From Patescibacteria group bacterium (lineage in GTDB: Bacteria; Patescibacteriota; Minisyncoccia; Phycocordibacterales; JBBTRF01): DNA of 64,000 nt. The position numbers and the translations under genes are program-made. The stretch spans positions 528,458 to 592,457 of the forward strand of contig JBBTRF010000001.1 of assembly GCA_038065315.1 (NCBI GenBank), written 5' to 3'. Of the stretch, positions 29,090-59,359 are shown in pieces. The notes beneath the pieces are model-generated. The model was given only the letters and a program-made list of their open reading frames with translations, ran no database searches and was not told the origin of the DNA. How positions within the stretch are numbered: the stretch's first letter is position 1; each line of letters starts with the position of its first letter.

Positions 29090-30412
29090 ATGAAAAAAAG
29101 TACCGCATACACAATCCTAGGAATCATCATCGGTATCGTCATTGTCGCGCTGGGCGTGTTGTATTTTGTCTTTCTGAGAACACCGGGGGTGGTAGATCCT
29201 GGTCCGGACGTCAACAACGAAGGGAAGGCAGACCGAGGCGGTTTCGATGGCACGGTTGACGACACTGAGCCAGTAACTCCTGTCGAACCAAAAACTCCAA
29301 TAGCCACCACTACGGGGGAGCGACCGGAACCACCAAAACTTCGAAAGATATCGACTGGACCGATAGCTGGAGGCATTGCCTACGACACAACCATCAAAAC
29401 AGGCAAGGTGAGTGTGACGGAGACCCACATCCGCTTCATCGACCGCATCAATGGCGCGATCCACGAAACCCGTACCGACGTTTTGGACACCCAGAAGATT
29501 GCCAGTGCTTCGATTCAGAAGATTCGCGAGGCGTTTTGGGCAAAAGACGGCGCTAGTGTGTACATCCGATATGTCACCGACGCCAACCCATACACCATCG
29601 AGACATATCTCGCTAAACTCGTACCTTCGAAGACCGCGTCCTCTTCACAGGCGGCACTCCCAAGTGACATCAGCTTCCTTCCACAAGAGGTGCGCGGCAA
29701 CTATCTCACTCGCAATCTCAAAGAAGTCCTACCTTCACCATTTACCCTCGGCACTATTTTCTACACCTTGCCAAAAGGTGCGGACCTGCAAGGTATCATC
29801 TCGAGCAAGGACGATACTAAAAGGGTAGAGGTGCTCAACTCACCAATCACCGAGTGGACCAGTCAGTGGCTCGCCTCGAATTTGTTCGCCATCACCACAA
29901 AAGCCTCAACTTTCTCAGATGGCTTCCTGTACTTCCTCAACACCGACACCCAGAAGCTCGACCGCGTGCTCGGCAACATCCGTGGCCTCACCACTCTTGC
30001 GAGCGCCGACCAAAAATATGTGATCTACTCGAACTCCAGAGATGATGGCTTCACCACACGACTTTTCAATACCAAGACTGGTCTGCTCGAGCAATTCTCA
30101 TTCACCGTATTGCCGGAAAAATGTGTCTGGAGCAAGAAACAAGTCGCGGTCGTGTATTGTGCCGTACCACAGTACCTTCCAAGTGGGCTCTACCCCGACG
30201 GTTGGTATCAAGGCGTTGTCAGCTTCACCGACGATCTCTGGAGAATCGACGCTTCGACCGGCTCCACAAAGCTCCTCGCCAGTCTCGCCGCAGTCTCAAA
30301 AGAAGAAATCGACGTGATCCGACCATTCCTCGATCCGCAAGAAAAATACCTCTTCTTCACCAACAAGCGTGATGGCGCTTTCTGGAACCTACTTCTTCCG
30401 ACGAATAAATAG
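29090..30412 (+). CDS. membrane-anchored hypothetical protein (last gene of cluster)
   Basis: N-terminal TM (ILGIIIGIVIVALGVLYFVFL) and a beta-rich extracytoplasmic domain. Its 3' end overlaps the convergent yidC by 24 nt. Confidence 0.45.
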   Translation: MKKSTAYTILGIIIGIVIVALGVLYFVFLRTPGVVDPGPDVNNEGKADRGGFDGTVDDTEPVTPVEPKTPIATTTGERPEPPKLRKISTGPIAGGIAYDTTIKTGKVSVTETHIRFIDRINGAIHETRTDVLDTQKIASASIQKIREAFWAKDGASVYIRYVTDANPYTIETYLAKLVPSKTASSSQAALPSDISFLPQEVRGNYLTRNLKEVLPSPFTLGTIFYTLPKGADLQGIISSKDDTKRVEVLNSPITEWTSQWLASNLFAITTKASTFSDGFLYFLNTDTQKLDRVLGNIRGLTTLASADQKYVIYSNSRDDGFTTRLFNTKTGLLEQFSFTVLPEKCVWSKKQVAVVYCAVPQYLPSGLYPDGWYQGVVSFTDDLWRIDASTGSTKLLASLAAVSKEEIDVIRPFLDPQEKYLFFTNKRDGAFWNLLLPTNK

Positions 30413-31099
30413 CTCCTGACCAATAGCGAAGACGTTGCTCGTGGTCCAATAAATAGCGATACCAGCATTGATACTGTATGAGGCAAAGAAGACGATGACA
30501 GGGAGGACATACTTCATCTGCGTACTCATGGCATGCGCCAGGTCTGTACCAAAAGACGGCGCTACGTTTGGATCTTTTTTGGTGACTGGCATTGAATATT
30601 TGATCTGAAAAAACTGTGTGATCGCCGCCAAGAGGGCGAGTTCCCAACTTTTCTTTGTAATATCGATGAACCAAAGCTTCATGGTGACCAACTCAGGGGA
30701 GTGGATGAATGAATAGAGCAGGGAGGCGTCGATCTTTGGCAAGCCGCCGCTATAGAAGATCTGGTAGAGCGCGAGGATGATCGGGATTTGGATAAAAATA
30801 AGCAGGATGCTCGAAAACGGGTTGATACCCGACTCTTTGTAGAGCTTCATGGTCTGCATCGACTGCTCAGCTGGATCTTTGTATTTCGCCTTGAGCTCAT
30901 TGATCCGCGGCTCAAGCTCCTTCATCTTCATTTGGCTCAAAACCGCCTTGCGAGAGAGGGGAAAGAGGATGAGCTTCACAATCACCGTAAATACCACAAT
31001 AGCCACACCGAAATCTGCCCACTGTGGAAGGGTGTTGATGAGAAAAATAAGCCCGTTGTACAACGGGTCGTAGAAAAACGTATGGTAGAGGTAACTCAT
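30389..31099 (-). CDS. yidC: membrane protein insertase YidC/Oxa1 (short form)
   Basis: IVVFTVIVKLILFPLSRKAVLSQMKMKELEPRINELKAKYKDPAEQSMQTMKLYKESGINP is the YidC core motif. The rpmH-rnpA-yidC synteny supports it. Confidence 0.85.
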   Translation of the reverse strand: MSYLYHTFFYDPLYNGLIFLINTLPQWADFGVAIVVFTVIVKLILFPLSRKAVLSQMKMKELEPRINELKAKYKDPAEQSMQTMKLYKESGINPFSSILLIFIQIPIILALYQIFYSGGLPKIDASLLYSFIHSPELVTMKLWFIDITKKSWELALLAAITQFFQIKYSMPVTKKDPNVAPSFGTDLAHAMSTQMKYVLPVIVFFASYSINAGIAIYWTTSNVFAIGQELFIRRKK

Positions 31100-31108
31100 C
31101 AGGCTATT

Positions 31109-31489
31109 CTAGACTAATTTCACTTTTTTGAGAAGCAGGCGAATCTCGGCCTCGATTTCAGGCAAAGGCAGCTCTTTTGCAGCCTTGGTCGCACCTCCCA
31201 CACCCTTGCCACCAGGCACTCTCACAAAGAAGGCGCCGCTAAAAGGAGCCTTTAGTGAGCCATTTTTTCGCACTTCTGCCAGCACATTCTCCAGCGCGGC
31301 GGCGAAGCGTCGCTTGATCCGATTGCGCAGCACAGCTGTGCCAGCCGCCTTCTTTGAGACTACGACGGAGCATTTCAAGGTAGGGGACGGCAAAAGACGT
31401 GCTGAAAAGGTCGCTGAGGAACAAAAAACACCCTTTCCGAGCAATTCGGGGAAGAGCGTTTTTGTGACTCGTTGAGTCTTTGGGAGCAT
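31109..31489 (-). CDS. rnpA: ribonuclease P protein component
   Basis: 126-aa basic protein with RNR motif (LRNRIKRRF). It lies between rpmH and yidC. Confidence 0.8.
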   Translation of the reverse strand: MLPKTQRVTKTLFPELLGKGVFCSSATFSARLLPSPTLKCSVVVSKKAAGTAVLRNRIKRRFAAALENVLAEVRKNGSLKAPFSGAFFVRVPGGKGVGGATKAAKELPLPEIEAEIRLLLKKVKLV

Positions 31490-31505
31490 CGAACAGGGCG
31501 TGTCT

Positions 31506-31658
31506 TTAAGCCTTTCCGCTCTTCTTCACGGAGAGCTTCTTGCGTCCCTTGAGTCGTCGTCGAGCGAGCACACGCTTGCCGCCCGAAGTTCGGCCTCGTA
31601 CGAGGAAGCCGTGGGTCTTCGCGCGCTTTCGCTTCTTTGGATGATATGTGAATGACAT
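31506..31658 (-). CDS. rpmH: 50S ribosomal protein L34
   Basis: [44 protein letters not shown]. The ATG at 31658 is preferred over the TTG at 31694. Confidence 0.85.
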
Positions 31659-31744
31659 GGGGAATAGCGTAACACAGAGTGCGAAAATGTTCAATATTTA
31701 TGAAAAGAAAAGCGACCACCCTCATCTAGAATACTGGGGTGGCC

Positions 31745-31990
31745 GCCATGGCGCGTTTGATTGTGTCTCTTCCGGCTACTCCGCCTCTGGGAATAGCTAC
31801 CCGTCTTAGCCTTGGTGTTGGCCGTTACCCCACCAACTAGCTGATAGGACGCGAACCCCTCAATGAATCTTTTGCCGCGTAGCTGATCGGCAGGTTGCTC
31901 ATTGAGTTGGTAATTCACGCATTACTCGCAACAGACCGAAGCCTGCAGAACTCTGGCGCCAAAGAAAGTATAGTCCTTTCAGCACGAATC
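31745..31990 (-). pseudogene. 16S rRNA 5'-domain-like fragment (corresponds roughly to E. coli 16S positions 50-330), co-oriented with and immediately upstream of rpmH
   Basis: Minus strand reads ...GCGAGTAATGCGTGAATTACC...GGTTCGCGTCCTATCAGCTAGTTGGTGGGGTAACGGCCAACACCAAGGCTAAGACGGGTAGC.... This matches the conserved 16S blocks GTGAGTAACGCGTGGG and GATTAGCTAGTTGGTGGGGTAACGGC-ACCAAGGCGACGATCCGTAGC, including a 23/23 match to AGCTAGTTGGTGGGGTAACGGCC. Similarity decays on both sides. The intergenic space is only about 560 nt, so this cannot be a complete gene. Confidence 0.5.
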
Positions 31991-32031
31991 AGTCAACTTT
32001 GGTTAATAAGTATGTTGAAGGTGTGTCTAGT

Positions 32032-32139
32032 AGGGGAGGAGAGATGAAATGTGAGGGACTACGGAGCGCGTCGGCGCGAGTCGGAGCGAAAAGTCAGCAG
32101 ACTTTTACGCGTGCCCTTACATTTCATCTCTCCTCCCCT
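32032..32139. repeat. 26-bp near-perfect inverted repeat (25/26) flanking a 56-nt GC-rich loop
   Basis: Arm1 AGGGGAGGAGAGATGAAATGTGAGGG at 32032-32057. Arm2 CCCTTACATTTCATCTCTCCTCCCCT at 32114-32139. The reverse complement of arm2 equals arm1 except one G/A position, which is a G-U pair if transcribed. Confidence 0.85.
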
Positions 32140-32216
32140 CTATCCACAACTTATCAACATGTTTCTCCACCCTCCACAAGTGTTGCATTTTCTCCCCAGC
32201 TTATATAATACGTTTC
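32140..32216 (+). promoter_or_regulatory. dnaA promoter region with DnaA-box-like sites
   Basis: cTATCCACA at 32140-32148 (8/9 to TTATCCACA), TTATCAACA at 32151-32159 (8/9) and TCCACAAG were seen. TATAAT at 32204-32209 lies about 12 nt before the dnaA ATG. Confidence 0.4.
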
Positions 32217-32220
32217 ACTT

Positions 32221-33567
32221 ATGGACTACAAGCAAATGTGGGATAAAGTATTGGTTGAGATTGAGCTTGCTATCTCAAAGGCTACATTCATCACTTGGTT
32301 CTCCAACACCCACATCCAAAAGATCGACGATGGCACCGTCCACCTCCATGTCCCAAACGTCTTCGCGAAAGATTGGATCAGCAACAAGTATCACAAACAG
32401 ATCCTGAAGAACCTCCGAGGGCAGAACGAGACCATCAGGGCGATGGCCTACGTCATTGCCAAAGAGGACGGCACGCGCAAGAAGGTAGAGGAGCCACCGA
32501 AGGCACCGTTTAATCCCACCACCCAACTGCCGCTCAGCGACGTTCAGATCAACAAGGACGACAACCTCAACCCGCGCTACACCTTCGACACGCTCATCGT
32601 CGGTAGCTTCAACGAACTCGCCCACGCCGCCTCACAAGCCATCATCAAGAAGCCCGGGCAGGCATACAACCCCTTCTTCATCTATGGCAACACCGGTCAC
32701 GGCAAGACCCACCTCGTGCAGTCGATAGGGAACTACATCAAAACCCACTACGCTGGGAAAAAAGTGTACTACCTCACCTCAGAAAAGTTTGGCCAGGAGT
32801 GCATCAATGCCCTTCAGACCAACAAAATGAATCTCTTCAAGGAGAAGTATCGCAAGTACGATGTCATCATCATGGATGATGTGCAATTCTTCTCCAACAA
32901 AGACAAGATCCAGGAGGAGCTTTTCCATTTGTTCAATTTCTTCTTCGACAACAACCGCCAGATCATTTTCTCGGCCGACAAGCACCCCAACTTCATCGCC
33001 AATGTCGAAGACCGCCTCCGCTCACGCTTCAGCTCAGGCATGCTGGTGGAGCTGCCATACCCGGATCTCGAGTCTCGTACAGCCATTTTGAAGGCCAAGG
33101 CATCACAGAGCGGCTTTACGCTCAATGATGAGACCGCCGAGTATCTTGCATCTTCTGTTGAGGGTAATATTCGCGAGCTTGAGGGTGCGCTCAACTCAAT
33201 CATTTGCCAGGCCCAGCTAAAAGGGAAGGACCTCAGCATGTTGGAGATCAAAAACTTGGTAAAAAACAGTGCGAAGCCAAAGAAAACGATTGCCGCGAAG
33301 GATATTATCAAAATTATCGCCGACTACTACAACATCGACGAGGCAAGCATCTACGACAAGACCCGCCGAAAGGAGGTGGTGCGCCCTCGACAGATGGTTA
33401 TGTACATTTTGCGAGAGGATTGTAGTGTCTCGTACCCTTCGATCGGCCAAAAGCTCGGCGGGCGAGACCACACGACCGTCATCCACTCGTGCGAGAAGAT
33501 CAAACACGAGATTAAGACCGACACGACCCTGATGCAGGAATTGAATCAGATTCGAGCTCTTCTTTAA
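32221..33567 (+). CDS. dnaA: chromosomal replication initiator protein DnaA
   Basis: MDYKQMWDKVLVEIELAISKATFITWF..., the AAA+ motif YNPFFIYGNTGHGKTHL, and a C-terminal DNA-binding domain (PSIGQKLGGRDHTTVIHSCEKI). Confidence 0.95.
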   Translation: MDYKQMWDKVLVEIELAISKATFITWFSNTHIQKIDDGTVHLHVPNVFAKDWISNKYHKQILKNLRGQNETIRAMAYVIAKEDGTRKKVEEPPKAPFNPTTQLPLSDVQINKDDNLNPRYTFDTLIVGSFNELAHAASQAIIKKPGQAYNPFFIYGNTGHGKTHLVQSIGNYIKTHYAGKKVYYLTSEKFGQECINALQTNKMNLFKEKYRKYDVIIMDDVQFFSNKDKIQEELFHLFNFFFDNNRQIIFSADKHPNFIANVEDRLRSRFSSGMLVELPYPDLESRTAILKAKASQSGFTLNDETAEYLASSVEGNIRELEGALNSIICQAQLKGKDLSMLEIKNLVKNSAKPKKTIAAKDIIKIIADYYNIDEASIYDKTRRKEVVRPRQMVMYILREDCSVSYPSIGQKLGGRDHTTVIHSCEKIKHEIKTDTTLMQELNQIRALL

Positions 33568-33844
33568 ATTGGGGATAATTCTGTGGATAAGGGTATGATA
33601 AGTGCCTGAACTCTGTGGATGGATCTGGGGAGAGGGTGTGGGGCGGACGGGGAAGCGGTGTGTAGAAGTCGGGGTATTTTGGGGAAGTTCTCCACCGTCG
33701 TCCCCACCTATCCAGAGTCTCCCCAACAGGGGTGGGGAGAAGAAATCGCCAGCCACGGCCCGGTTGAGCGACTCCCAGACTTATACACATATCCACAGTC
33801 TTAATAATAGTAATAACTCTTTATATAGAATATAGTAAAAACAC
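33568..33844. promoter_or_regulatory. candidate oriC: DnaA-box cluster plus AT-rich unwinding element between dnaA and dnaN
   Basis: TTCTGTGGATAA contains a perfect TTATCCACA on the minus strand, about 33581-33592. Near matches are CTGTGGATGG, CTATCCAGA and ATATCCACAG. The AT-rich tract CTTAATAATAGTAATAACTCTTTATATAGAATATAGTAAAAAC at about 33793-33840 is the likely unwinding element. Confidence 0.7.
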
Positions 33845-34945
33845 ATGAGGATAGAATGCGTACGAGAAAAATTTGCGGCAGCAGTCCAAAAGGCCGAACG
33901 AGTAACTGGAAAGAATCTGACCCTTCCGGTATTAAAGTGCCTCTACCTGAAAGCAGAGCGTGGCAACTTGCTCATCCGGGCAACCAATCTTGACCTCGGC
34001 ATTGAGATCAACCTGCCTGTGAAAGTGGAAATTCCTGGTTCAGTCGCCATCCCGGGCGCCGTACTCTCAAGCTTCCTCCAGCAGGTGCGCAATGACAAGA
34101 ACATCATCCTTGAAACCATCGACGGCAACCTCTCAGTATCAACCCAGAACAACTCAACCCTCATCAAGGCATTGCCGCACGACGATTTTCCAACCGTACC
34201 AGTGTTCATGAAGGAGAACAGCCTCACCTTGGCTCCAAAAGAGTTTGTGCGCGGCCTTAAAGCCGTCTGGTATGCCTCTGGAACCTCCCAGGTGAAGCCG
34301 GAACTCTCCAGTGTATATGTGTTCGCAGATCAGGACGAATTGGTCTTTGTAGCCACCGACTCTTTCCGTCTTGCTGAGAAGCGAGTGCGGGTGAAAAAGG
34401 CACAAGACTTCTCTCACGTGCTCATTCCGTTCAAAAACGTCACTGAAATTATGCGTATTCTTGAAGAGATCGATGAAGATGTCGAAATTTCCTTCGACAA
34501 AAACCAGATTGCCTTCTCCTCGAGCAATGTGTACCTCACCTCACGTCTCATCGACGGCTCTTTCCCTGATTACAAACAGATTATTCCAAAAGAACACAAA
34601 ACTGAGGCGACCCTACTCAAGGAAGACCTCGTTAATTCGTTGAAAATGGCGCATATTTTTTCCGACAAATTCAATCAGGTCTCCTTGTCTGTCACACCAT
34701 CGAAAAAGGCCTTTGAAATGAAGACCAAGAACGCCGAAGTGGGGGAGAATGTAAACAAGCTCAAGGCCAATCTCACCGGTGAGGACATTGATATGAATTT
34801 CAATCATAAATACGTCACCGATTGCTTCCAGTCAATCGATTCAGACAGCATTACCCTCCATTTCAACGGCCCTAGTCGTCCGGTAGTGCTCCGTGGTGTG
34901 TCCGACAAAACATTCTTGTACTTGGTGATGCCAATGAATCGCTAG
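33845..34945 (+). CDS. dnaN: DNA polymerase III beta sliding clamp
   Basis: 366 aa. MRIECVREKFAAAVQKAERVTGKNLTLPVLKCLYLKAERGNLLIRATNLDLGIEI has the typical three-domain clamp pattern. It immediately follows dnaA-oriC. Confidence 0.9.
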   Translation: MRIECVREKFAAAVQKAERVTGKNLTLPVLKCLYLKAERGNLLIRATNLDLGIEINLPVKVEIPGSVAIPGAVLSSFLQQVRNDKNIILETIDGNLSVSTQNNSTLIKALPHDDFPTVPVFMKENSLTLAPKEFVRGLKAVWYASGTSQVKPELSSVYVFADQDELVFVATDSFRLAEKRVRVKKAQDFSHVLIPFKNVTEIMRILEEIDEDVEISFDKNQIAFSSSNVYLTSRLIDGSFPDYKQIIPKEHKTEATLLKEDLVNSLKMAHIFSDKFNQVSLSVTPSKKAFEMKTKNAEVGENVNKLKANLTGEDIDMNFNHKYVTDCFQSIDSDSITLHFNGPSRPVVLRGVSDKTFLYLVMPMNR

Positions 34946-39158: not shown

Positions 39159-39260
39159 GCAAAAGTGAAATGTTTTTTGGAACTGCGGAGCGCGGCGGCG
39201 CGAGCCGGAGCAAAATCCTAGCAAGGATTTATGCGTGTCCAAAAAACATTTCACTTTTTG

Positions 39261-39665: not shown

Positions 39666-40190
39666 CTATTGCCGATATGAAGCCAGGCAGGTAATGGCGC
39701 AGGCGATCGCGTCGTATTCGTCGTCGTGTTCGATGTCTTTTGTGATCTTGATGAGCTTAGGGATCATGCTGATGACCTGTCGTTTGTCGCTCTTGCCGTA
39801 GCCGGTGGTGGCATTTTTGATCTGCCCAGGGCCATACTCAGCGATCGGGAGGCCGTGGCGAGCGGCTTCGTATACGATGACGCCGCGAGCCTCAGCCACA
39901 TTCATCGCCGTCTTTTGGTTGTTAGTGAAAAAGAGCGTCTCGATCGCCATGATGGTCGGATCGAATTCTTCGATCACTCGTGCGAGTTCTTCTCCAAGTG
40001 CGCGGAGACGGACAGGGAAGGCGGCCTTGGCCGAGGTTTGGAAGCATTCTGAGAAAAGGAGAATGTCTTTGCCGCGCATCGTACCTTCTGTCACTCGCTC
40101 AGCTACGGCAATGCCAAGTCGCTCGTATCCCGGGTCGATGGCGAGAACGCGAAGAGGTTTTGTTATCGCAGTTTTTTTGGTGGCGGACAT
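39666..40190 (-). CDS. ruvC: crossover junction endodeoxyribonuclease RuvC
   Basis: LRVLAIDPGYERLGIAVAE and later catalytic acidic residues were seen. The internal ATG (MSATKK) avoids overlap with yebC. Confidence 0.85.
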   Translation of the reverse strand: MSATKKTAITKPLRVLAIDPGYERLGIAVAERVTEGTMRGKDILLFSECFQTSAKAAFPVRLRALGEELARVIEEFDPTIMAIETLFFTNNQKTAMNVAEARGVIVYEAARHGLPIAEYGPGQIKNATTGYGKSDKRQVISMIPKLIKITKDIEHDDEYDAIACAITCLASYRQ

Positions 40191-40197
40191 GCTCGTG

Positions 40198-40743
40198 TTA
40201 TTCAGCATTGGTGAATACTTCTTGCACCTCATCATTTTCCTCGAGGGCTTCGGTGAGTGTCATGAGCTGAGCACCATCTTCTTCGGAGAGGGGAATGGTG
40301 GTGGTTGGGTTCCAGACCTCACAGCCGTCCTCAGTACGAGTTTTTTCAAAAGCCCAACTTGCCGAGCCGATGCCGGCAAGCTCAAAGCCGTGGTCGGAAA
40401 GAATATGCTTCACTTCCTGCGCTGCTTTGTTGCGGTTGTCTGTGAGAGTTTCAATGATCATCGCACAGCCGCCGGGTCCGTATGCCTCGTAGATAATATG
40501 TTCCATTGCACCGCCACCAGCTTCAGTGGCTTTTTTGATGGCGCGTTCGATATTGTCGTTTGGCATGTTGGCGGCTCGGGCACGTTCGATCACCGCTTTT
40601 ACATTCGGGGCGTCTTTCCGCCCGCCCGCCTTCTTTGCCTCCACTGTCAGCAGGCGGGCGTACTTCGTGAACGCACGGCTCTTCTGAGCATCGGTCTTAC
40701 CCTTCTTTTCCTTAATCTGCTTCCATTTGTTGTGGCCGGACAT
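40198..40743 (-). CDS. yebC: YebC/PmpR(TACO1)-family regulator, shortened (181 aa vs about 240)
   Basis: MSGHNKWKQIKEKKGKTDAQKSRAFTKYARLLTVEAKKAGG...IYEAYGPGGCAMIIETLTDNRN. It appears to lack about 55 aa of the middle domain. Confidence 0.75.
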   Translation of the reverse strand: MSGHNKWKQIKEKKGKTDAQKSRAFTKYARLLTVEAKKAGGRKDAPNVKAVIERARAANMPNDNIERAIKKATEAGGGAMEHIIYEAYGPGGCAMIIETLTDNRNKAAQEVKHILSDHGFELAGIGSASWAFEKTRTEDGCEVWNPTTTIPLSEEDGAQLMTLTEALEENDEVQEVFTNAE

Positions 40744-41130: not shown

Positions 41131-41165
41131 AAAACCGCCACAGAGTGTGCGGTTTTTGTTTGTAT
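41131..41165 (+). terminator. rho-independent terminator
   Basis: AAAAACCGCCACAGAGTGTGCGGTTTTTGTTTG. A palindromic CTCGAGAGGGAATTGCCCTCGAG hairpin lies immediately upstream. Confidence 0.6.
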
Positions 41166-41227
41166 TGACAATGAGAGCTAGTCGAATTATACTTAAACTG
41201 TATTACAAAATATACACATTATATTAC

Positions 41228-41443
41228 ATGCGAACCGTACTAAATATATCATTGCCAACTGACTTGGCGAAAGAAGTTCGTCGAGAGGTAAAATCTGGCA
41301 GCTTCGCTTCTACTAGCGAGTTTATTCGCCACCTTATTCGCCTTTGGAACACGGAGAAGCTTGCGCTCCAGCTCAGGCATGACAAGGTTGATTTTGAAAA
41401 GGGGAAAGGTAAAGTGCTTCGCTCCCTAGCTTCTTTGCGATAA
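41228..41443 (+). CDS. ribbon-helix-helix (CopG/ParD-like) antitoxin
   Basis: MRTVLNISLPTDLAKEVRREVKSGSFASTSEFIRHLIRLW is an RHH signature. The ATG at 41228 is preferred. A toxin-like gene follows 14 nt later. Confidence 0.55.
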   Translation: MRTVLNISLPTDLAKEVRREVKSGSFASTSEFIRHLIRLWNTEKLALQLRHDKVDFEKGKGKVLRSLASLR

Positions 41444-41457
41444 TCTCCTGCGTTGCC

Positions 41458-41721
41458 ATGCAGCTCCACATCCTTTATTCTGCACGGTTCGCAAGACACT
41501 ATAAAAAGATGTCGATGCATATAAAAAATCTCGCCGAGAAGAAAGAGACTGTATTCAGACAAGATCCATTCGATAGAGGTCTAAAAACCCACAAATTACA
41601 TGGAGTGCTCGAAGGGTTCTACGCGTTCTCGCTTACTGCAGAGCACCGTATCATTTTTGATTTTGCTGACAAAAACACTGTTCGTTTTTACGATATTGGC
41701 GATCATGATATCTATTACTGA
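41458..41721 (+). CDS. RelE/ParE-superfamily toxin (YafQ-like)
   Basis: KTHKLHGVLEGFYAFSLTAEHRIIFDFADKNTVRFYDIGDHDIY matches the RelE/YafQ C-terminal pattern (H-K-L-G...R-Y...GxH). Length is 87 aa. Confidence 0.6.
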   Translation: MQLHILYSARFARHYKKMSMHIKNLAEKKETVFRQDPFDRGLKTHKLHGVLEGFYAFSLTAEHRIIFDFADKNTVRFYDIGDHDIYY

Positions 41722-41731
41722 TTACTAGACG

Positions 41732-42790
41732 TTACAGAAACTTTCCCGAAGCTTTCAATCCAAGGTGTTCGTGCGCCTTGCCGGTGGCGATGCGGCCGCG
41801 CGGGGTGCGTTCGAGGAAACCGAGCTGGAGTAAGTATGGTTCGTGTACCTCTTCGATGGTCGCTTCTTCCTCGGAGAGCGCGGCCGCCAGAGTGTTTAGG
41901 CCTACAGGGCCGCCACTGAATTTTTCGATAAGAGTTGTAAGTACGGCACGGTCTGAAGGCAACAGGCCAATGTGGTCGACGCCAAGGAGGTCGAGCGCTT
42001 TCTTCACAACGTCGGCATCGAGCTTGCCTTTTTTCACTTGGGCAAAGTCGCGGCAGCGCTTGAGCAGATAGTTGGCAGTACGCGGCGTGAAGCGGCTGCG
42101 CTTGGCGATCTCGGCAATCGCGGCAGTTTCAATCTCCACCCCGAGAATCTTCGCTGAACGCTTCACGATCTCTTCGATCTCGGGTTGGGAATAAAATTCG
42201 AGACGGAAGGTGCCGCCACTGAAGCGTGAACGAAGCGGCGAGGACAGCATGGCAATGCGCGTGGTAGCGGCGATCAAAGTAAACGCGGGCAGCTCAAGCT
42301 GAATAGTGCGCGCCGAAGGTCCTTTGCCAATGATGATGTCTAGCGAGCCCGACTCCATGGCAGGGTAAAGGATCTCTTCAATGGAGCGGTTCAGACGATG
42401 TATCTCATCGACAAACAAAATGTCACCAGCCGAAAGATTGGTTAAAATCGAGGCCAAGTCGCCGACTTTCTCGATCGCCGGGCCGGAGGTCACCTTCATC
42501 TGTGCGTTCATTTCTTTGGAAATGAGATGGGCGAGAGTGGTTTTGCCGAGACCTGGTGGGCCGTAGAAGAGAATGTGTTCAGGTGGATGGTTGCGTTCGC
42601 GTGCGGCAGTGAGCAGGATACTGAGGTTCTCCTTGATATTTTTCTGGCCAATATAATCATCCCACTGCGACGGGCGCAGTGTTTGATCGAGGAAATTCTC
42701 GTCGGCAGGTGCACCACCAACATCGGTTCCTACTGAAGGCACCTTTCCGGCACCTTTTTGCAGGTCTTTTTTTGAATCGCTCTGCGACAT
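41732..42790 (-). CDS. ruvB: Holliday junction branch-migration ATPase RuvB
   Basis: [19 protein letters not shown]...[24 protein letters not shown]...[10 protein letters not shown]. Confidence 0.95.
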
Positions 42791-42905
42791 GCGCCCATTA
42801 TACTCCTTTTCGTGAGGCGACAGCCCTTTACTTTTAGCCGAACTTTGGTACTGTTACAGGCCGCGTTGGTCAGGAGGGTCTCGCGAAGAGGGCAGGAGGT
42901 GACTT

Positions 42906-42934
42906 GACATTTAGCTTAAATAATGCTAAGATAG
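42906..42934 (+). promoter_or_regulatory. sigma70-type promoter (TTGACA-N17-TAAGAT) with no downstream ORF
   Basis: cTTGACAtttagcttaaataatgcTAAGATagtc. The next 270 nt have no plus-strand ORF of 60 aa or more. Confidence 0.45.
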
Positions 42935-42940
42935 TCAATG

Positions 42941-43215
42941 AATCGGTCAGAAGTCGAGCGTATCGACAAATCAATTTGAAAGAGAAAGGAACGAAAAACG
43001 GCCATAATAGGCCATTTTTTCACGCATTTCCAGCATAGTAATCTCTAAGCAATACACCTGCAAGGGTTTAGTAGTTTCTCAACAAGGACGTCCTGGCTTC
43101 GGCTGTGAGTATCCTTAGTCGCTTAACTTGGCTTTTAGTCTAGTATTAAAAGCATTGCTTAGAGATTACTGCGCTCGAACCTCTTTTTAAGACGCCCTTC
43201 GGGGCATTTTGTCTT
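42941..43215 (+). ncRNA. candidate structured small RNA(s) of unknown class
   Basis: It lies downstream of the promoter above. A GTCGA-GCGTA-TCGAC hairpin and a GGCC...GGCC+T6 element were seen at about 43008-43030. A perfect 17-bp inverted repeat pair encloses about 100 nt. A GCCC-UUCG-GGGC hairpin plus a U-tract sits at about 43193-43215. Confidence 0.3.
43037..43170. repeat. perfect 17-bp inverted repeats AGTAATCTCTAAGCAAT / ATTGCTTAGAGATTACT separated by 100 bp
   Basis: 43037-43053 and 43154-43170 are exact reverse complements. The interior contains the CCTGCAAGGGTTTAGTA motif that recurs at 12163. Confidence 0.85.
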
Positions 43216-43303
43216 TTTCTGCCACCATCTTATCGTACCGATACATTCCTGCAACTTCCGTTTCAGAAAAAACGTGTTGCGGTTTTTGTTCTGACGAATT
43301 TTT

Positions 43304-45001
43304 CTAGAATTCGTCGAAGAGGTCAATCACACGACTCAGTTCATCGAGGGAAGTGACACCACGGAGCATTTTCAACACGCCATCTTGACGCATGTCGAGG
43401 ATACCTTGAGCGAGCGCGGCCTTTTTGATCTCGCGCTCGCTCGGATTGCCGATCACCGCTTGTTCTATTGCTTCGCTGCGCAGGATAGCTTCATAGATAC
43501 CGATTCGGCCCTTGTATCCGGTCAGATTGCATTTATCACAGCCGACAGGGAGCCATTGTTTCGTGGCGTCGACAGATTCTTTTGTCAGGGCATCTCGATA
43601 TGACGGATCGGCAATCGCGGCGAGGGTCTTGGCTACGAGCGCAGCATTTTCCGGATCTAGTGGCGCTTGTTTTTTGCACGATGGACACAATACGCGTACA
43701 AGTCGCTGTGCCAGAGCGATATTCACGGCCGAGGTAAGCGTCTTTGGATTTACACCGAGGTCGATGAGGCGGGGGAAGGTGCCAGCAGCGCTATTGGTGT
43801 GCAGTGTGGAGAATACAAGGTGGCCAGTCTGTGCGGAGTTGATCGCAATTTGCGCGGTTTCATTGTCGCGAATTTCACCCACCATGATCACATCAGGGTC
43901 CTGTCGCAAAGCAGCGCGCAATCCGTTCAAAAAATCATACCCTTTTTCCGACTCGACCTGCGTCTGCACGATGCCAGGCAGATGATATTCGATCGGGTCT
44001 TCGATGGTGATAATCTTGATCTCCGGCTTGCTCACTTTCCTCAAAAAGGCATATAGCGTCGTGGTTTTTCCAGATCCGGTCGGGCCAGTGGTGAGGATCA
44101 TGCCCTCTGGTCGGTCGATCTCTTTCTGCAACACCGCGAAGAGCTTCGGGTCGATGCCCATGTCTTCGAGCGGCACCGCAATATTTTTTGGATTCAAAAT
44201 ACGCATTACGATAGACTCGCTGTACGAGCCGGGCAGGATTGATACGCGGATTTCGATCTCACTTTCGTTGAGCTTCACGCTGAGACGACCGTCTTGCGCG
44301 TCGGTTTTGATATTGAGCTTCATGCCCGACAACAGCTTTACGCGAGAGAGGAGGAGGTGGTATGTCTCATGATCGAGAGAGAGTACATTGTGGAGTACGC
44401 CATCGAGACGCAAGCGCAGACGCACAGCATTTTCTTCCGGCTCGAGGTGGACGTCGGAAGCGCCGGTGGCCAATGCACCAGCAAGGATGATTTCGAAGAT
44501 TTTCGAGATACGGAAACCTTTATTTTGAGATAAAATGTCCGCGACCATCTTCTTCACGTCCTCGACCGTCTGCACTTTGGCGAGCATTTCCGCGATCTCC
44601 TCACTCGACACCTCGAGCGAACCAGCCTTGGTCTCCGAAGCGAAGGAAAGATCCTTGTACATCTCCCAAGCACGAGTGAGACTGTTGATCGATGCCATCG
44701 CCTGCGACACTTTGTATCCTTTCTGCTCAAGCTCGCCAATCAAAGCGATGGTCGCATCATTTTTTGGCGAGAGTACGGCGATCTCGAGGCGCTTGTCGAC
44801 GCGGTTGTATGCCACACATTTCGCCGCACGCGCTTTTGATTCTTCGATTACACGCAGCGCATCGCTATTGATGGGGATCTGCGAGAAATTCACATAGAGC
44901 AAGCCATAGCGTGCGGCGAGCATCTGGGCCAGCTCCTCTTCCTCGGTGGAGTAGAGGTCCTTGATCTTCTTATTTTGCTTGTCTTCGTCAAACTGGATCA
45001 T
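43304..45001 (-). CDS. pilB: type IV pilus assembly / type II secretion ATPase (PilB/GspE family)
   Basis: It has an N-terminal GspE_N-like domain. Walker A TGPTGSGKTTTLYAFL and the His-box region follow. A C-terminal Cys cluster (CPSCKK...CDKC) was seen. Length is 565 aa. Confidence 0.9.
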   Translation of the reverse strand: MIQFDEDKQNKKIKDLYSTEEEELAQMLAARYGLLYVNFSQIPINSDALRVIEESKARAAKCVAYNRVDKRLEIAVLSPKNDATIALIGELEQKGYKVSQAMASINSLTRAWEMYKDLSFASETKAGSLEVSSEEIAEMLAKVQTVEDVKKMVADILSQNKGFRISKIFEIILAGALATGASDVHLEPEENAVRLRLRLDGVLHNVLSLDHETYHLLLSRVKLLSGMKLNIKTDAQDGRLSVKLNESEIEIRVSILPGSYSESIVMRILNPKNIAVPLEDMGIDPKLFAVLQKEIDRPEGMILTTGPTGSGKTTTLYAFLRKVSKPEIKIITIEDPIEYHLPGIVQTQVESEKGYDFLNGLRAALRQDPDVIMVGEIRDNETAQIAINSAQTGHLVFSTLHTNSAAGTFPRLIDLGVNPKTLTSAVNIALAQRLVRVLCPSCKKQAPLDPENAALVAKTLAAIADPSYRDALTKESVDATKQWLPVGCDKCNLTGYKGRIGIYEAILRSEAIEQAVIGNPSEREIKKAALAQGILDMRQDGVLKMLRGVTSLDELSRVIDLFDEF

Positions 45002-58774: not shown

Positions 58775-59359
58775 CTATTTGCCGAGCAATTTCAAAGCCG
58801 CCTTGAGTTTGTCACTCGTCGAGCCACTCGCCGCCACCTTTTTGTCGATCTTCTTCAAAGCCTCGCGAGATTCGCGCTCCGAATAGCCAAGACTCTTGAG
58901 TGCCTCCACGGCATCGGATTCATCTTGATACACATCGTTCTTGAAACGTTCGTCGGAAAACTTGTCCTTCAATTCCATCACGATCTTCTCGGCATTCTTC
59001 TTGCCAATGCCGGAGATCTTCGTCAAATGTCCCGGCTCTCCCGTAGCAATGGCGCCTCGAAGGGTAGAGACAGAGGCGAGAGCGAGGATGCCGATAGCGG
59101 TCTTTGGGCCGATGCCGTTGACGCTAATAAGGTGTTCAAAAAGCTCGAGAGCCTCGCGATCCAAAAAGCCATACAAATCCAAAGCGTCATCGCGCACGGC
59201 CAAATAGGTGCACAGACGCACCTTGTCGTCTACCCCCACGCTGGCGAGCTTGTCGAGGGTCTCAGGGGTGACGCGCACCTTGTAGCCGACGCCGCCAGCC
59301 ATCACCACCATATATTGGTCGTTGCGCCACGAAATGACACCTTCCAATTCTGCGATCAT
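58775..59359 (-). CDS. ruvA: Holliday junction DNA helicase RuvA
   Basis: MIAELEGVI...GGVGYKVRV and the HhH motifs (LISVNGIGPKTAIGILA) were seen. Length is 194 aa. Confidence 0.9.
   Translation of the reverse strand: MIAELEGVISWRNDQYMVVMAGGVGYKVRVTPETLDKLASVGVDDKVRLCTYLAVRDDALDLYGFLDREALELFEHLISVNGIGPKTAIGILALASVSTLRGAIATGEPGHLTKISGIGKKNAEKIVMELKDKFSDERFKNDVYQDESDAVEALKSLGYSERESREALKKIDKKVAASGSTSDKLKAALKLLGK

Follow-up and report, generated by a model that had tools for sequence, protein, structure and literature searches.

A structured RNA gene candidate divergent from ruvB in uncultured Paceibacteria

The locus between ruvB and pilB

The window analysed here is a 64,000-nt stretch of contig JBBTRF010000001.1 (positions 528,458 to 592,457) from a Patescibacteria group bacterium. 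Two of its minus-strand genes, ruvB and a pilB-like ATPase gene, flank a 513-nt gap (42791–43303), and this gap holds an RNA element on the plus strand. The element is a member of an RNA family that occurs in well over a hundred uncultured Paceibacteria, in the same spot beside ruvB, and it is not a mobile element. The features of the locus, with the helices of the RNA numbered P1 to P4, are these:

41732–42790, minus strand: ruvB (Pfam RuvB_N, AAA_lid_4 and RuvB_C), divergent neighbour of the RNA gene
42904–42932, plus strand: promoter, with -35 box TTGACA (42904–42909), a 17-nt spacer, TG at 42924–42925 and -10 box TAAGAT (42927–42932)
42939–43027, plus strand: 5ʹ leader, with a start near 42939–42940 predicted from the position of the -10 box
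43028–43053, plus strand: 5ʹ strand of P1, containing the 17-mer at 43037–43053; 21 of 25 P1 pairs have compensatory changes
43056–43067, plus strand: P2, a short 5ʹ-side junction hairpin (ACCU-GCAA-GGGU), from the constrained fold
43073–43128, plus strand: P3, the long apical arm
43073–43076 with 43125–43128, plus strand: P3a, AGUU with AACU, 4–8 covarying pairs in the family, then an internal loop
43085–43088 with 43112–43115, plus strand: P3b, AGGA with UCCU, invariant in 16/16 species
43090–43109, plus strand: P3c, which covaries, and its cUUCGg tip
43131–43153, plus strand: P4, hairpin GCUUUUA-GUCUAGUA-UUAAAAGC, abutting the 3ʹ strand of P1
43154–43179, plus strand: 3ʹ strand of P1, from the repeat match and covariation
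43180–43218, plus strand: 3ʹ end signals, with U tract CCUCUUUUU (43180–43188) right after P1, then a terminator hairpin
43304–45001, minus strand: pilB-like ATPase gene (Pfam T2SSE), convergent neighbour of the RNA gene

The RNA promoter is of the σ70 type with an extended -10 element. Ten of 12 consensus positions are matched, and no other site within 42600–43500 looks as much like a promoter. An earlier reading of this DNA from its letters (the original prediction) described a near-consensus TTGACA-N17-TAAGAT promoter firing into a region free of plus-strand open reading frames (ORFs), and both statements hold, as the region has no meaningful plus-strand ORF but only a mechanical 44-aa TTG ORF (42904–43038) and a 13-aa ATG ORF at 42939, neither of which is conserved in relatives. 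The latter (MNRSEVERIDKSI; 13 codons, 42939–42980, plus strand) begins at the predicted transcription start and is not conserved in relatives with short leaders. The leader contains a small hairpin (42953–42967) and an A/U-flanked GGCC hairpin (42994–43019). Read on the minus strand, this second hairpin (GGCC-AUAAUA-GGCC) resembles a terminator, with 10 bp that include a G-U pair; on the plus strand it is weaker. It could attenuate transcripts that run through from pilB toward ruvB on the minus strand.

Downstream of P1 and its U tract, the terminator hairpin (AGACGCCC-UUCG-GGGC...GUCU) is accompanied by a U run, and AUUUUGUCUUUUU follows the hairpin, to 43218. A consensus scan missed this terminator because its U run is interrupted. 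The original prediction had picked out by eye both the terminal hairpin with its U tract and a pair of UUCG hairpins. These are GGC-UUCG-GCU (loop 43098–43101) and the terminator itself, GCCC-UUCG-GGGC (43194–43205).

The most conspicuous feature of the gap is an inverted repeat. The 17-mer AGTAATCTCTAAGCAAT at 43037–43053 has its exact complement at 43154–43170, with 100 nt between, just as originally described, and the repeat extends to 26-nt arms that are 88% complementary (43028–43053 and 43154–43179). No further occurrence of the 17-mer with up to three mismatches was found in the 64 kb (chance expectation 0.10 matches; at least two in 1/100 shuffles). In the conserved RNA, this repeat forms the closing helix, P1. 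The 278-nt transcript predicted from these signals folds more stably than shuffled sequences on either strand (z = -3.8 for plus, -5.1 for minus). Folding by itself therefore does not tell the strand, which is assigned by comparative data.

Homologues, covariation and the ruvB promoter

The same window sequence is found on several groundwater contigs from wells H41, H43 and H52 of the Hainich aquifer. Every strain-level contig retrieved has a gap 100% identical to that of the window, and comparison therefore called for more distant relatives. A RuvB search restricted to one genome per species yielded 80 loci. The 16 closest are Paceibacteria with RuvB 63–79% identical, labelled Kaiserbacteria, Zambryskibacteria, Minisyncoccia and the like, and all 16 carry the element just upstream of, and divergent from, ruvB, with a TTGACA/TGnTAnnnT promoter. 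R1, a covariance model built from this main family, detected nothing in the other 64 loci, which come from other phyla and from other lineages of the Candidate Phyla Radiation (CPR).

A DNA pattern drawn from the RNA alone, and hence independent of ruvB (ATCTCTAAR...AGGAC...TTAGAGAT), matched at least 120 metagenome stretches. Among the 120 matches listed, 108 are true members; the other 12 fell by chance in coding DNA and were excluded. Within the listed set, ruvB is divergent and within 600 nt in 98/98 members that have at least 500 nt of upstream sequence, and pilB is convergent and within 700 nt in 60/75 loci, frequently ending 16–70 nt from P1. RuvB identity among these pattern-found members is 62–85%. 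The 64-kb window has one copy of the element, and each locus elsewhere also has one; over more than 120 genomes, the syntenic site is always the same. A phage-borne element is ruled out: 2.9 million viral contigs gave two pattern matches, neither of them a family member.

The promoter is strikingly uniform. Across 122 family loci, TTGACA is perfect in 114 and the -10 box is TG-extended in 121. The leader between promoter and P1 is conserved in neither length (9–186 nt over 120 loci) nor sequence. A U-rich tract follows P1 in 79/109 members of the main subfamily.

The conserved body is ~150 nt long. P1 closes a four-way junction that bears two short hairpins, P2 and P4, and the long arm P3. P1 is 25–30 bp across the family and often free of bulges; its sequence AAAUCUCUAAGCAAU, present in 12/16 species, is unusually conserved. 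The place of P2 is taken in relatives by hairpins of other sequence, 4–6 bp long and often UUCG-capped, and P2 is absent in two Kaiserbacteria-like members (L019 and L021). In P3, the P3b helix carries a bulged C opposite YA, and small bulges flank AGGA/UCCU; the tip varies in length between the UUCG tetraloop of the window and some 90 nt in one relative (L022). A linker of 3–4 nt (UUA or UUAA) precedes P4, whose base is CUUU/AAAG, and the spacing from AUCCU to the AGAGAT of the P1 3ʹ strand is constant at 45–46 nt. The junction has just 0–4 unpaired nucleotides. All loops vary, and conservation is confined to the helices and the junction.

Covariation was assessed in an alignment of 16 sequences, the window and 15 close relatives; L022 was omitted on account of its long P3 insertion. 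Compensatory double changes are seen in 29 of 39 pairs, compared with 14.4 in shuffles (0/500 reached the observed value). Furthermore, 94.3% of paired cells can pair, as against 78.9% in column shuffles (0/500) and 42–53% with slid partners. In L009, L019, L021 and L022 the P1 sequence is wholly replaced and the pairing fully kept. P2, P3a and P4 vary too much in length for a test on fixed columns, and native and swapped duplexes were therefore compared instead; native helices are more stable than those with swapped partners for P1, P2, P3a, P3c and P4. A column-wise mutual-information scan for extra or pseudoknot pairs recovered P1, P3c and P4 and nothing new. Examination of the fold against homologous loci, suggested with the original prediction, thus gives strong covariation.

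The comparative data also assign the strand. G-U pairs are frequent (for example, UG in 12/16 and GU in 8–9/16 sequences), and these would be A-C mismatches on the other strand. Covariance-model scores are 60–153 bits on the promoter strand, as against 27–50 bits on the opposite strand. Together, these observations place the RNA on the plus strand of the window and rule out a minus-strand RNA or an element of the ruvB 5ʹ untranslated region.

A second group of loci extends the family. In L030, a member of the Moranbacteria with RuvB 60% identical, an element with the same type of promoter lies divergent from ruvB, between ruvB and a pilB-like ATPase gene, and all six further Moranbacteria loci fetched through RuvB homologues carry it. 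Their alignment yields 54 pairs, of which 20 show compensatory changes, and the same topology, in which P1, P2, P3 and P4 meet at a four-way junction. P2 here is 9 bp with an invariant 11-nt loop (UUCUAUCUUUU), the base of P3 is GGGAAC/GUUCC, a UCAAGA/UCGA motif is present, and no U tract follows P1. R1 detects no member of the Moranbacteria type, and Rfam finds nothing for L030. From position, promoter and topology, we infer that the two subfamilies are homologous.

Insertions of 90–150 nt occur at the P3 tip in L209 and L213 (both Moranbacteria; 100–150 nt) and in L022 (about 90 nt), so the tip tolerates large additions; the insertion in L213 holds tandem AACTAGAT-like repeats. In L209, an IS110-family transposase gene (DEDD_Tnp_IS110/Transposase_20; 1–459) lies about 1 kb from the RNA locus and occupies the place held by pilB in other Moranbacteria loci.

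The RNA gene is physically interlocked with ruvB in most relatives. In 72/93 loci (for example, L095, L118 and L132), the -35 box of the RNA overlaps the furthest in-frame ruvB ATG: the box and the CAT of that codon together read TTGACAT, which on the ruvB strand is the start ATGTCAA. Furthermore, a perfect TGCTATAAT on the ruvB strand lies within the RNA leader in 48/119 loci (for example, L012 and L013), 23–25 or 46 nt after the RNA -10 box, and a looser pattern is found in 61 loci, compared with 15.5 expected by chance. The two promoters thus face each other and overlap, such that separation would destroy both; this explains the unbroken synteny. Transcription of the RNA would probably interfere with ruvB expression. 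The Moranbacteria subfamily keeps the synteny with ruvB despite having no promoter overlap; in L030, about 135 nt separate the RNA -35 box from the ruvB ATG.

Face-to-face promoter pairs that act by transcriptional interference are known, for example pR/pL of phage 186. In many relatives, the arrangement is alike: the RNA promoter and the TGCTATAAT promoter of ruvB face each other about 25–50 bp apart, and the 5ʹ ends of their transcripts overlap. The likeness concerns the cis layer only. The face-to-face pair is absent from the window genome and the Moranbacteria, and the interference proposed here is a prediction from promoter geometry. If it occurs, the interlocked promoters would be a compact case of transcriptional interference on a DNA-repair gene. 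They also carry a caution: physical overlap, rather than shared function, can yield tight synteny.

The nature of the RNA

What kind of RNA is encoded beside ruvB? Rfam 15 has no match to the element at gathering thresholds, nor a 6S match at those thresholds anywhere in the window, and scans of 300–600 nt from the window, L021, L008 and L030 gave nothing meaningful at E ≤ 10. Neither Rfam models nor ARAGORN found a match to 6S RNA (RF00013), signal recognition particle (SRP) RNA, RNase P RNA, transfer-messenger RNA (tmRNA), 5S rRNA or Y RNA. The failure of the original prediction to match RNase P RNA, tmRNA, SRP RNA or 6S RNA by eye is therefore borne out, and the Rfam scan it called for assigns the element to no family. 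A literature search likewise turned up no 6S RNA from the CPR, no ruvB-associated RNA and no CPR-specific structured RNAs like this one.

Several specific candidates were rejected. The sequence AAGGACGUCCUGGC resembles the CR-I motif of RNase P RNA (GAGGAAAGUCCGGGC), but it pairs locally in P3 and has no P4/CR-V partner; moreover, the RNA is too small and has no RF00010 match even at E ≤ 10. Diverged RNase P RNAs of the CPR are reportedly detectable with RF00010 at lowered thresholds (PMC8172020). With rnpA in the window, a regular RNase P RNA would be expected at some other site. SRP RNA is rejected because the P3 tip varies in sequence and length, unlike helix 8, and Rfam gives no match. For tmRNA or a tRNA-like RNA, ARAGORN is negative and the T-loop-like GUUCGAAU of L030 is not conserved in its relatives. 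A riboswitch or cis-regulatory leader is inconsistent with a convergent next gene, pilB, and a terminator that follows the element. The element is also more than a terminator: P1 encloses a conserved multi-helix core of ~100 nt, and the Moranbacteria members lack the U tract.

The best explanation, to which we assign a probability of about 0.62, is that the locus is a gene in its own right, encoding a stable and highly structured small RNA (sRNA) of a family that is specific to the Paceibacteria, within the CPR (Patescibacteria), and absent from Rfam 15. As we picture it, the RNA would be abundant and stable. In the main subfamily, the transcript would end at the U tract right after P1, at the separate hairpin, or at both. 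Leader and tail would probably be removed at the long, near-perfect P1, which has the look of an RNase III-type substrate. Helices and junction are conserved and all loops are variable, which points to a protein scaffold rather than a base-pairing regulator. We propose that the RNA most likely binds or sequesters protein, acting through its helices and junction, and that its promoter probably also modulates ruvB in cis. RNA polymerase, in a 6S-like role, is the leading named candidate for a partner; we put it forward tentatively, by analogy.

Bacterial Y RNAs (YrlA; associated with Ro/Rsr) pair their 5ʹ and 3ʹ ends in a long stem of conserved sequence, and this stem closes a multi-branched module. 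The RNA described here shares the end-pairing stem and the multi-branched module and, as proposed, would also act as a protein scaffold rather than by base pairing. In contrast to Y RNAs, it has no Rfam Y RNA match and no conserved T-loop or tRNA-like module; no Ro/TROVE gene turned up near the locus, in work that included no search aimed at one. Comparative genomics has yielded orphan structured sRNAs such as Bacteroidales-1 and the raiA motif, each, like the present RNA, confined to one lineage and with a covarying fold and conserved neighbours. Their Rfam models do not match the present RNA, whose fold and sequence are different; it also differs in its unusually uniform consensus promoter and the promoter interlock with a neighbour.

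A number of points weigh against a stable sRNA as the explanation. Transcription, RNA ends and abundance are deduced solely from the promoter and terminator sequences. Homology of the two subfamilies is argued from position, promoter and topology rather than from sequence, and R1 misses the Moranbacteria type. Interlocked promoters could by themselves explain the fixed position of the gene, but not its covarying structure; the window genome has no such overlap, with 114 nt from the -35 box to the ruvB ATG and a TATAAT (42802–42797) 6 nt before that ATG. The analogy with 6S RNA is also weak in detail. R1 scores the E. coli ssrS locus at 4.5 bits or less, with no covariance similarity in either direction; inspection by eye found no conserved UCGG-type template for product RNA (pRNA) in the 5ʹ central region; and the centre is a true four-way junction rather than an open bulge, with a 9-bp P2 and invariant loop in the Moranbacteria.

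The alternative that survives best is that the element is itself a diverged 6S RNA (ssrS) of the Paceibacteria, an open-promoter mimic that binds the σ70 holoenzyme. On this view, the closing stem would correspond to P1 and the apical stem to P3, the two strands of the central bulge would be formed by the P2 and P4 regions, and polymerase would be released by pRNA copying. In 6S RNAs, a closing stem and an apical stem enclose a centre of non-pairing strands, with a hairpin placed opposite the 5ʹ bulge (PMC8414754); the centre need not be purely single-stranded, and the family is known to evade covariance-model searches (PMC4227106, PMC8414754). Parts of this are matched. Like 6S RNA, the element is a stand-alone, monocistronic gene with a strong predicted housekeeping promoter and a terminator, in a single conserved copy per genome region; it is ~150–190 nt long, with its 5ʹ and 3ʹ ends in a long closing stem, and has a long apical stem with small internal loops and a 3ʹ-side central hairpin next to the closing stem, opposite the 5ʹ bulge as in canonical 6S RNA (PMC8414754). 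Two long arms surround a centre whose strands are not paired to each other, and both arms and the overall size fit the 6S rod, as in the E. coli fold; the centre, by contrast, is a four-way junction. Its sequence changes fast while the fold is kept. In addition, the 6S gene of Firmicutes is syntenic with rarA, a gene for an AAA+ ATPase of recombination, and the two are divergent in B. subtilis (PMC8414754), paralleling ruvB here; and the literature searched places no 6S RNA in the CPR.

Nonetheless, we consider a diverged 6S RNA doubtful. RF00013 finds nothing at E ≤ 10 in four members, and the reciprocal search on E. coli ssrS is negative. Where 6S RNA has an open bulge, this RNA has a junction with two covarying hairpins, P2 and P4. 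P2 is a stable hairpin, UUCG-capped in many members and with an 11-nt invariant loop in the Moranbacteria, and would be awkward as an active-site template. P1 is a bulge-free, perfectly paired duplex of ~26 bp in many members, whereas 6S closing stems are irregular. For these reasons, and because no pRNA template is apparent, the family is not filed as 6S RNA.

A second alternative assigns function to the DNA and to the act of transcription, with the RNA itself functionless. The locus would be a strong promoter and terminator cassette that blocks read-through from pilB and throttles ruvB, by face-to-face promoter interference and antisense overlap of the 5ʹ ends. This fits the -35 box overlapping the in-frame ruvB ATG (72/93 loci), the TGCTATAAT in the leader at fixed distances (48/119) and the looser pattern in excess of chance, the A-rich 5ʹ side of P1 with a U tract in 79/109 loci, and the end of pilB often lying 16–70 nt from P1. 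A terminator or insulator, however, needs no conserved junction, invariant AGGA/UCCU or constant 45–46-nt spacing, and the G-U pairs show selection on the fold of the plus-strand RNA. The Moranbacteria keep the fold with neither U tract nor overlap, and the window genome also lacks the overlap. A purely cis-acting cassette is therefore unlikely.

We regard two further proposals as very improbable. In the first, P1 is an RNase III processing duplex and the functional product is a short duplex or guide RNA from its strands. P1 has up to 26 contiguous bulge-free pairs, AAAUCUCUAAGCAAU is kept in 12/16 species, the variable leaders look disposable, and two further long-stem elements with a conserved core lie in the same window (see below). 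However, P1 is replaced in sequence with pairing kept in L009, L019, L021, L022 and the Moranbacteria, no target complementarity was found in the 64-kb window, and the conserved interior (P3b and the junction) would be left unexplained. In the second, the RNA belongs to a new class of housekeeping RNA-protein particle in the Paceibacteria; its four-way junction, stacked almost perfectly, mimics a Holliday-type DNA junction, and so titrates or guides RuvA, RuvB, RuvC or an HU-like protein; such mimicry would keep the RNA beside ruvB across orders, even where the promoters do not overlap.

The original prediction left open whether the element is a structured sRNA or a 134-bp miniature inverted-repeat transposable element (MITE) with 17-bp terminal inverted repeats. 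The conserved locus, promoter type, fold and covariation favour the former. On the 64-kb window and the loci compared, the MITE can be dismissed: the ~134-bp unit between perfect inverted repeats 100 nt apart does resemble MITEs and small palindromic repeats, but the element occurs once in the window, where no transposase lies near it, carries a promoter and terminator of its own, occupies the same locus in more than 120 genomes and is found on no viral contig, and its arms vary between lineages while staying complementary, with G-U pairs and compensatory changes in 21 of 25 P1 pairs, as expected of an RNA helix and not of a transposase site.

Patescibacteria make up a large share of bacterial diversity and are almost entirely uncultured. 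A near-consensus promoter, a covarying fold and presence in all close relatives suggest an unrecognised RNA-protein particle or a remodelled 6S-type regulator, which would serve organisms with minimal regulatory repertoires. The two alignments and R1 are a ready seed for genome-wide annotation.

Neighbouring genes and other elements of the window

ruvA and ruvB usually form one operon. Here, they are 16 kb apart, with ruvA at 58775–59359 on the minus strand. The idea that the RNA stands in for a missing RuvA was rejected because this ruvA is present. Between ruvB and yebC-ruvC sits an inserted toxin-antitoxin pair, composed of a ribbon-helix-helix antitoxin and a YafQ/YoeB-like toxin; the further spans listed at this site are 39666–40743 (minus strand) and 41147–41721 (plus strand).

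The window also contains a second family of elements with long, perfect stems, in two copies (32032–32139 and 39161–39258; arms of 26 nt and 21 nt). The arms are of entirely different sequence in the two copies, and they enclose a conserved 56-nt core (ACTnCGGAGCGCGnCGGCGCGAGnCGGAGC...AGCA...GCGTG). This core folds into two hairpins, the second of which covaries between the copies (z = -7.5 to -9). For this family, Rfam gave only spurious sub-threshold matches to miRNA precursors, and the core was found nowhere else in the loci compared. One copy is in the rpmH-dnaA (origin) spacer and the other lies 3 nt after the tyrS stop codon.

A ~155-nt fragment at 31773–31928 (minus strand) matches positions 107–310 of the bacterial 16S rRNA model, with an internal deletion (62.4 bits, E = 2e-17). 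It went unreported in the whole-window scan at gathering thresholds, and lies in the rpmH-dnaA intergenic region beside the presumed origin. It may be what is left of a pseudogene, the product of a chimeric assembly or a functional mimic. The origin region itself (~30389–34945) comprises yidC, rnpA and rpmH on the minus strand, and dnaA (32221–33567) and dnaN (33845–34945) on the plus strand. Cumulative GC skew has its minimum at ~32–34 kb, and a DnaA-box-like TATCCACA lies near 32141.

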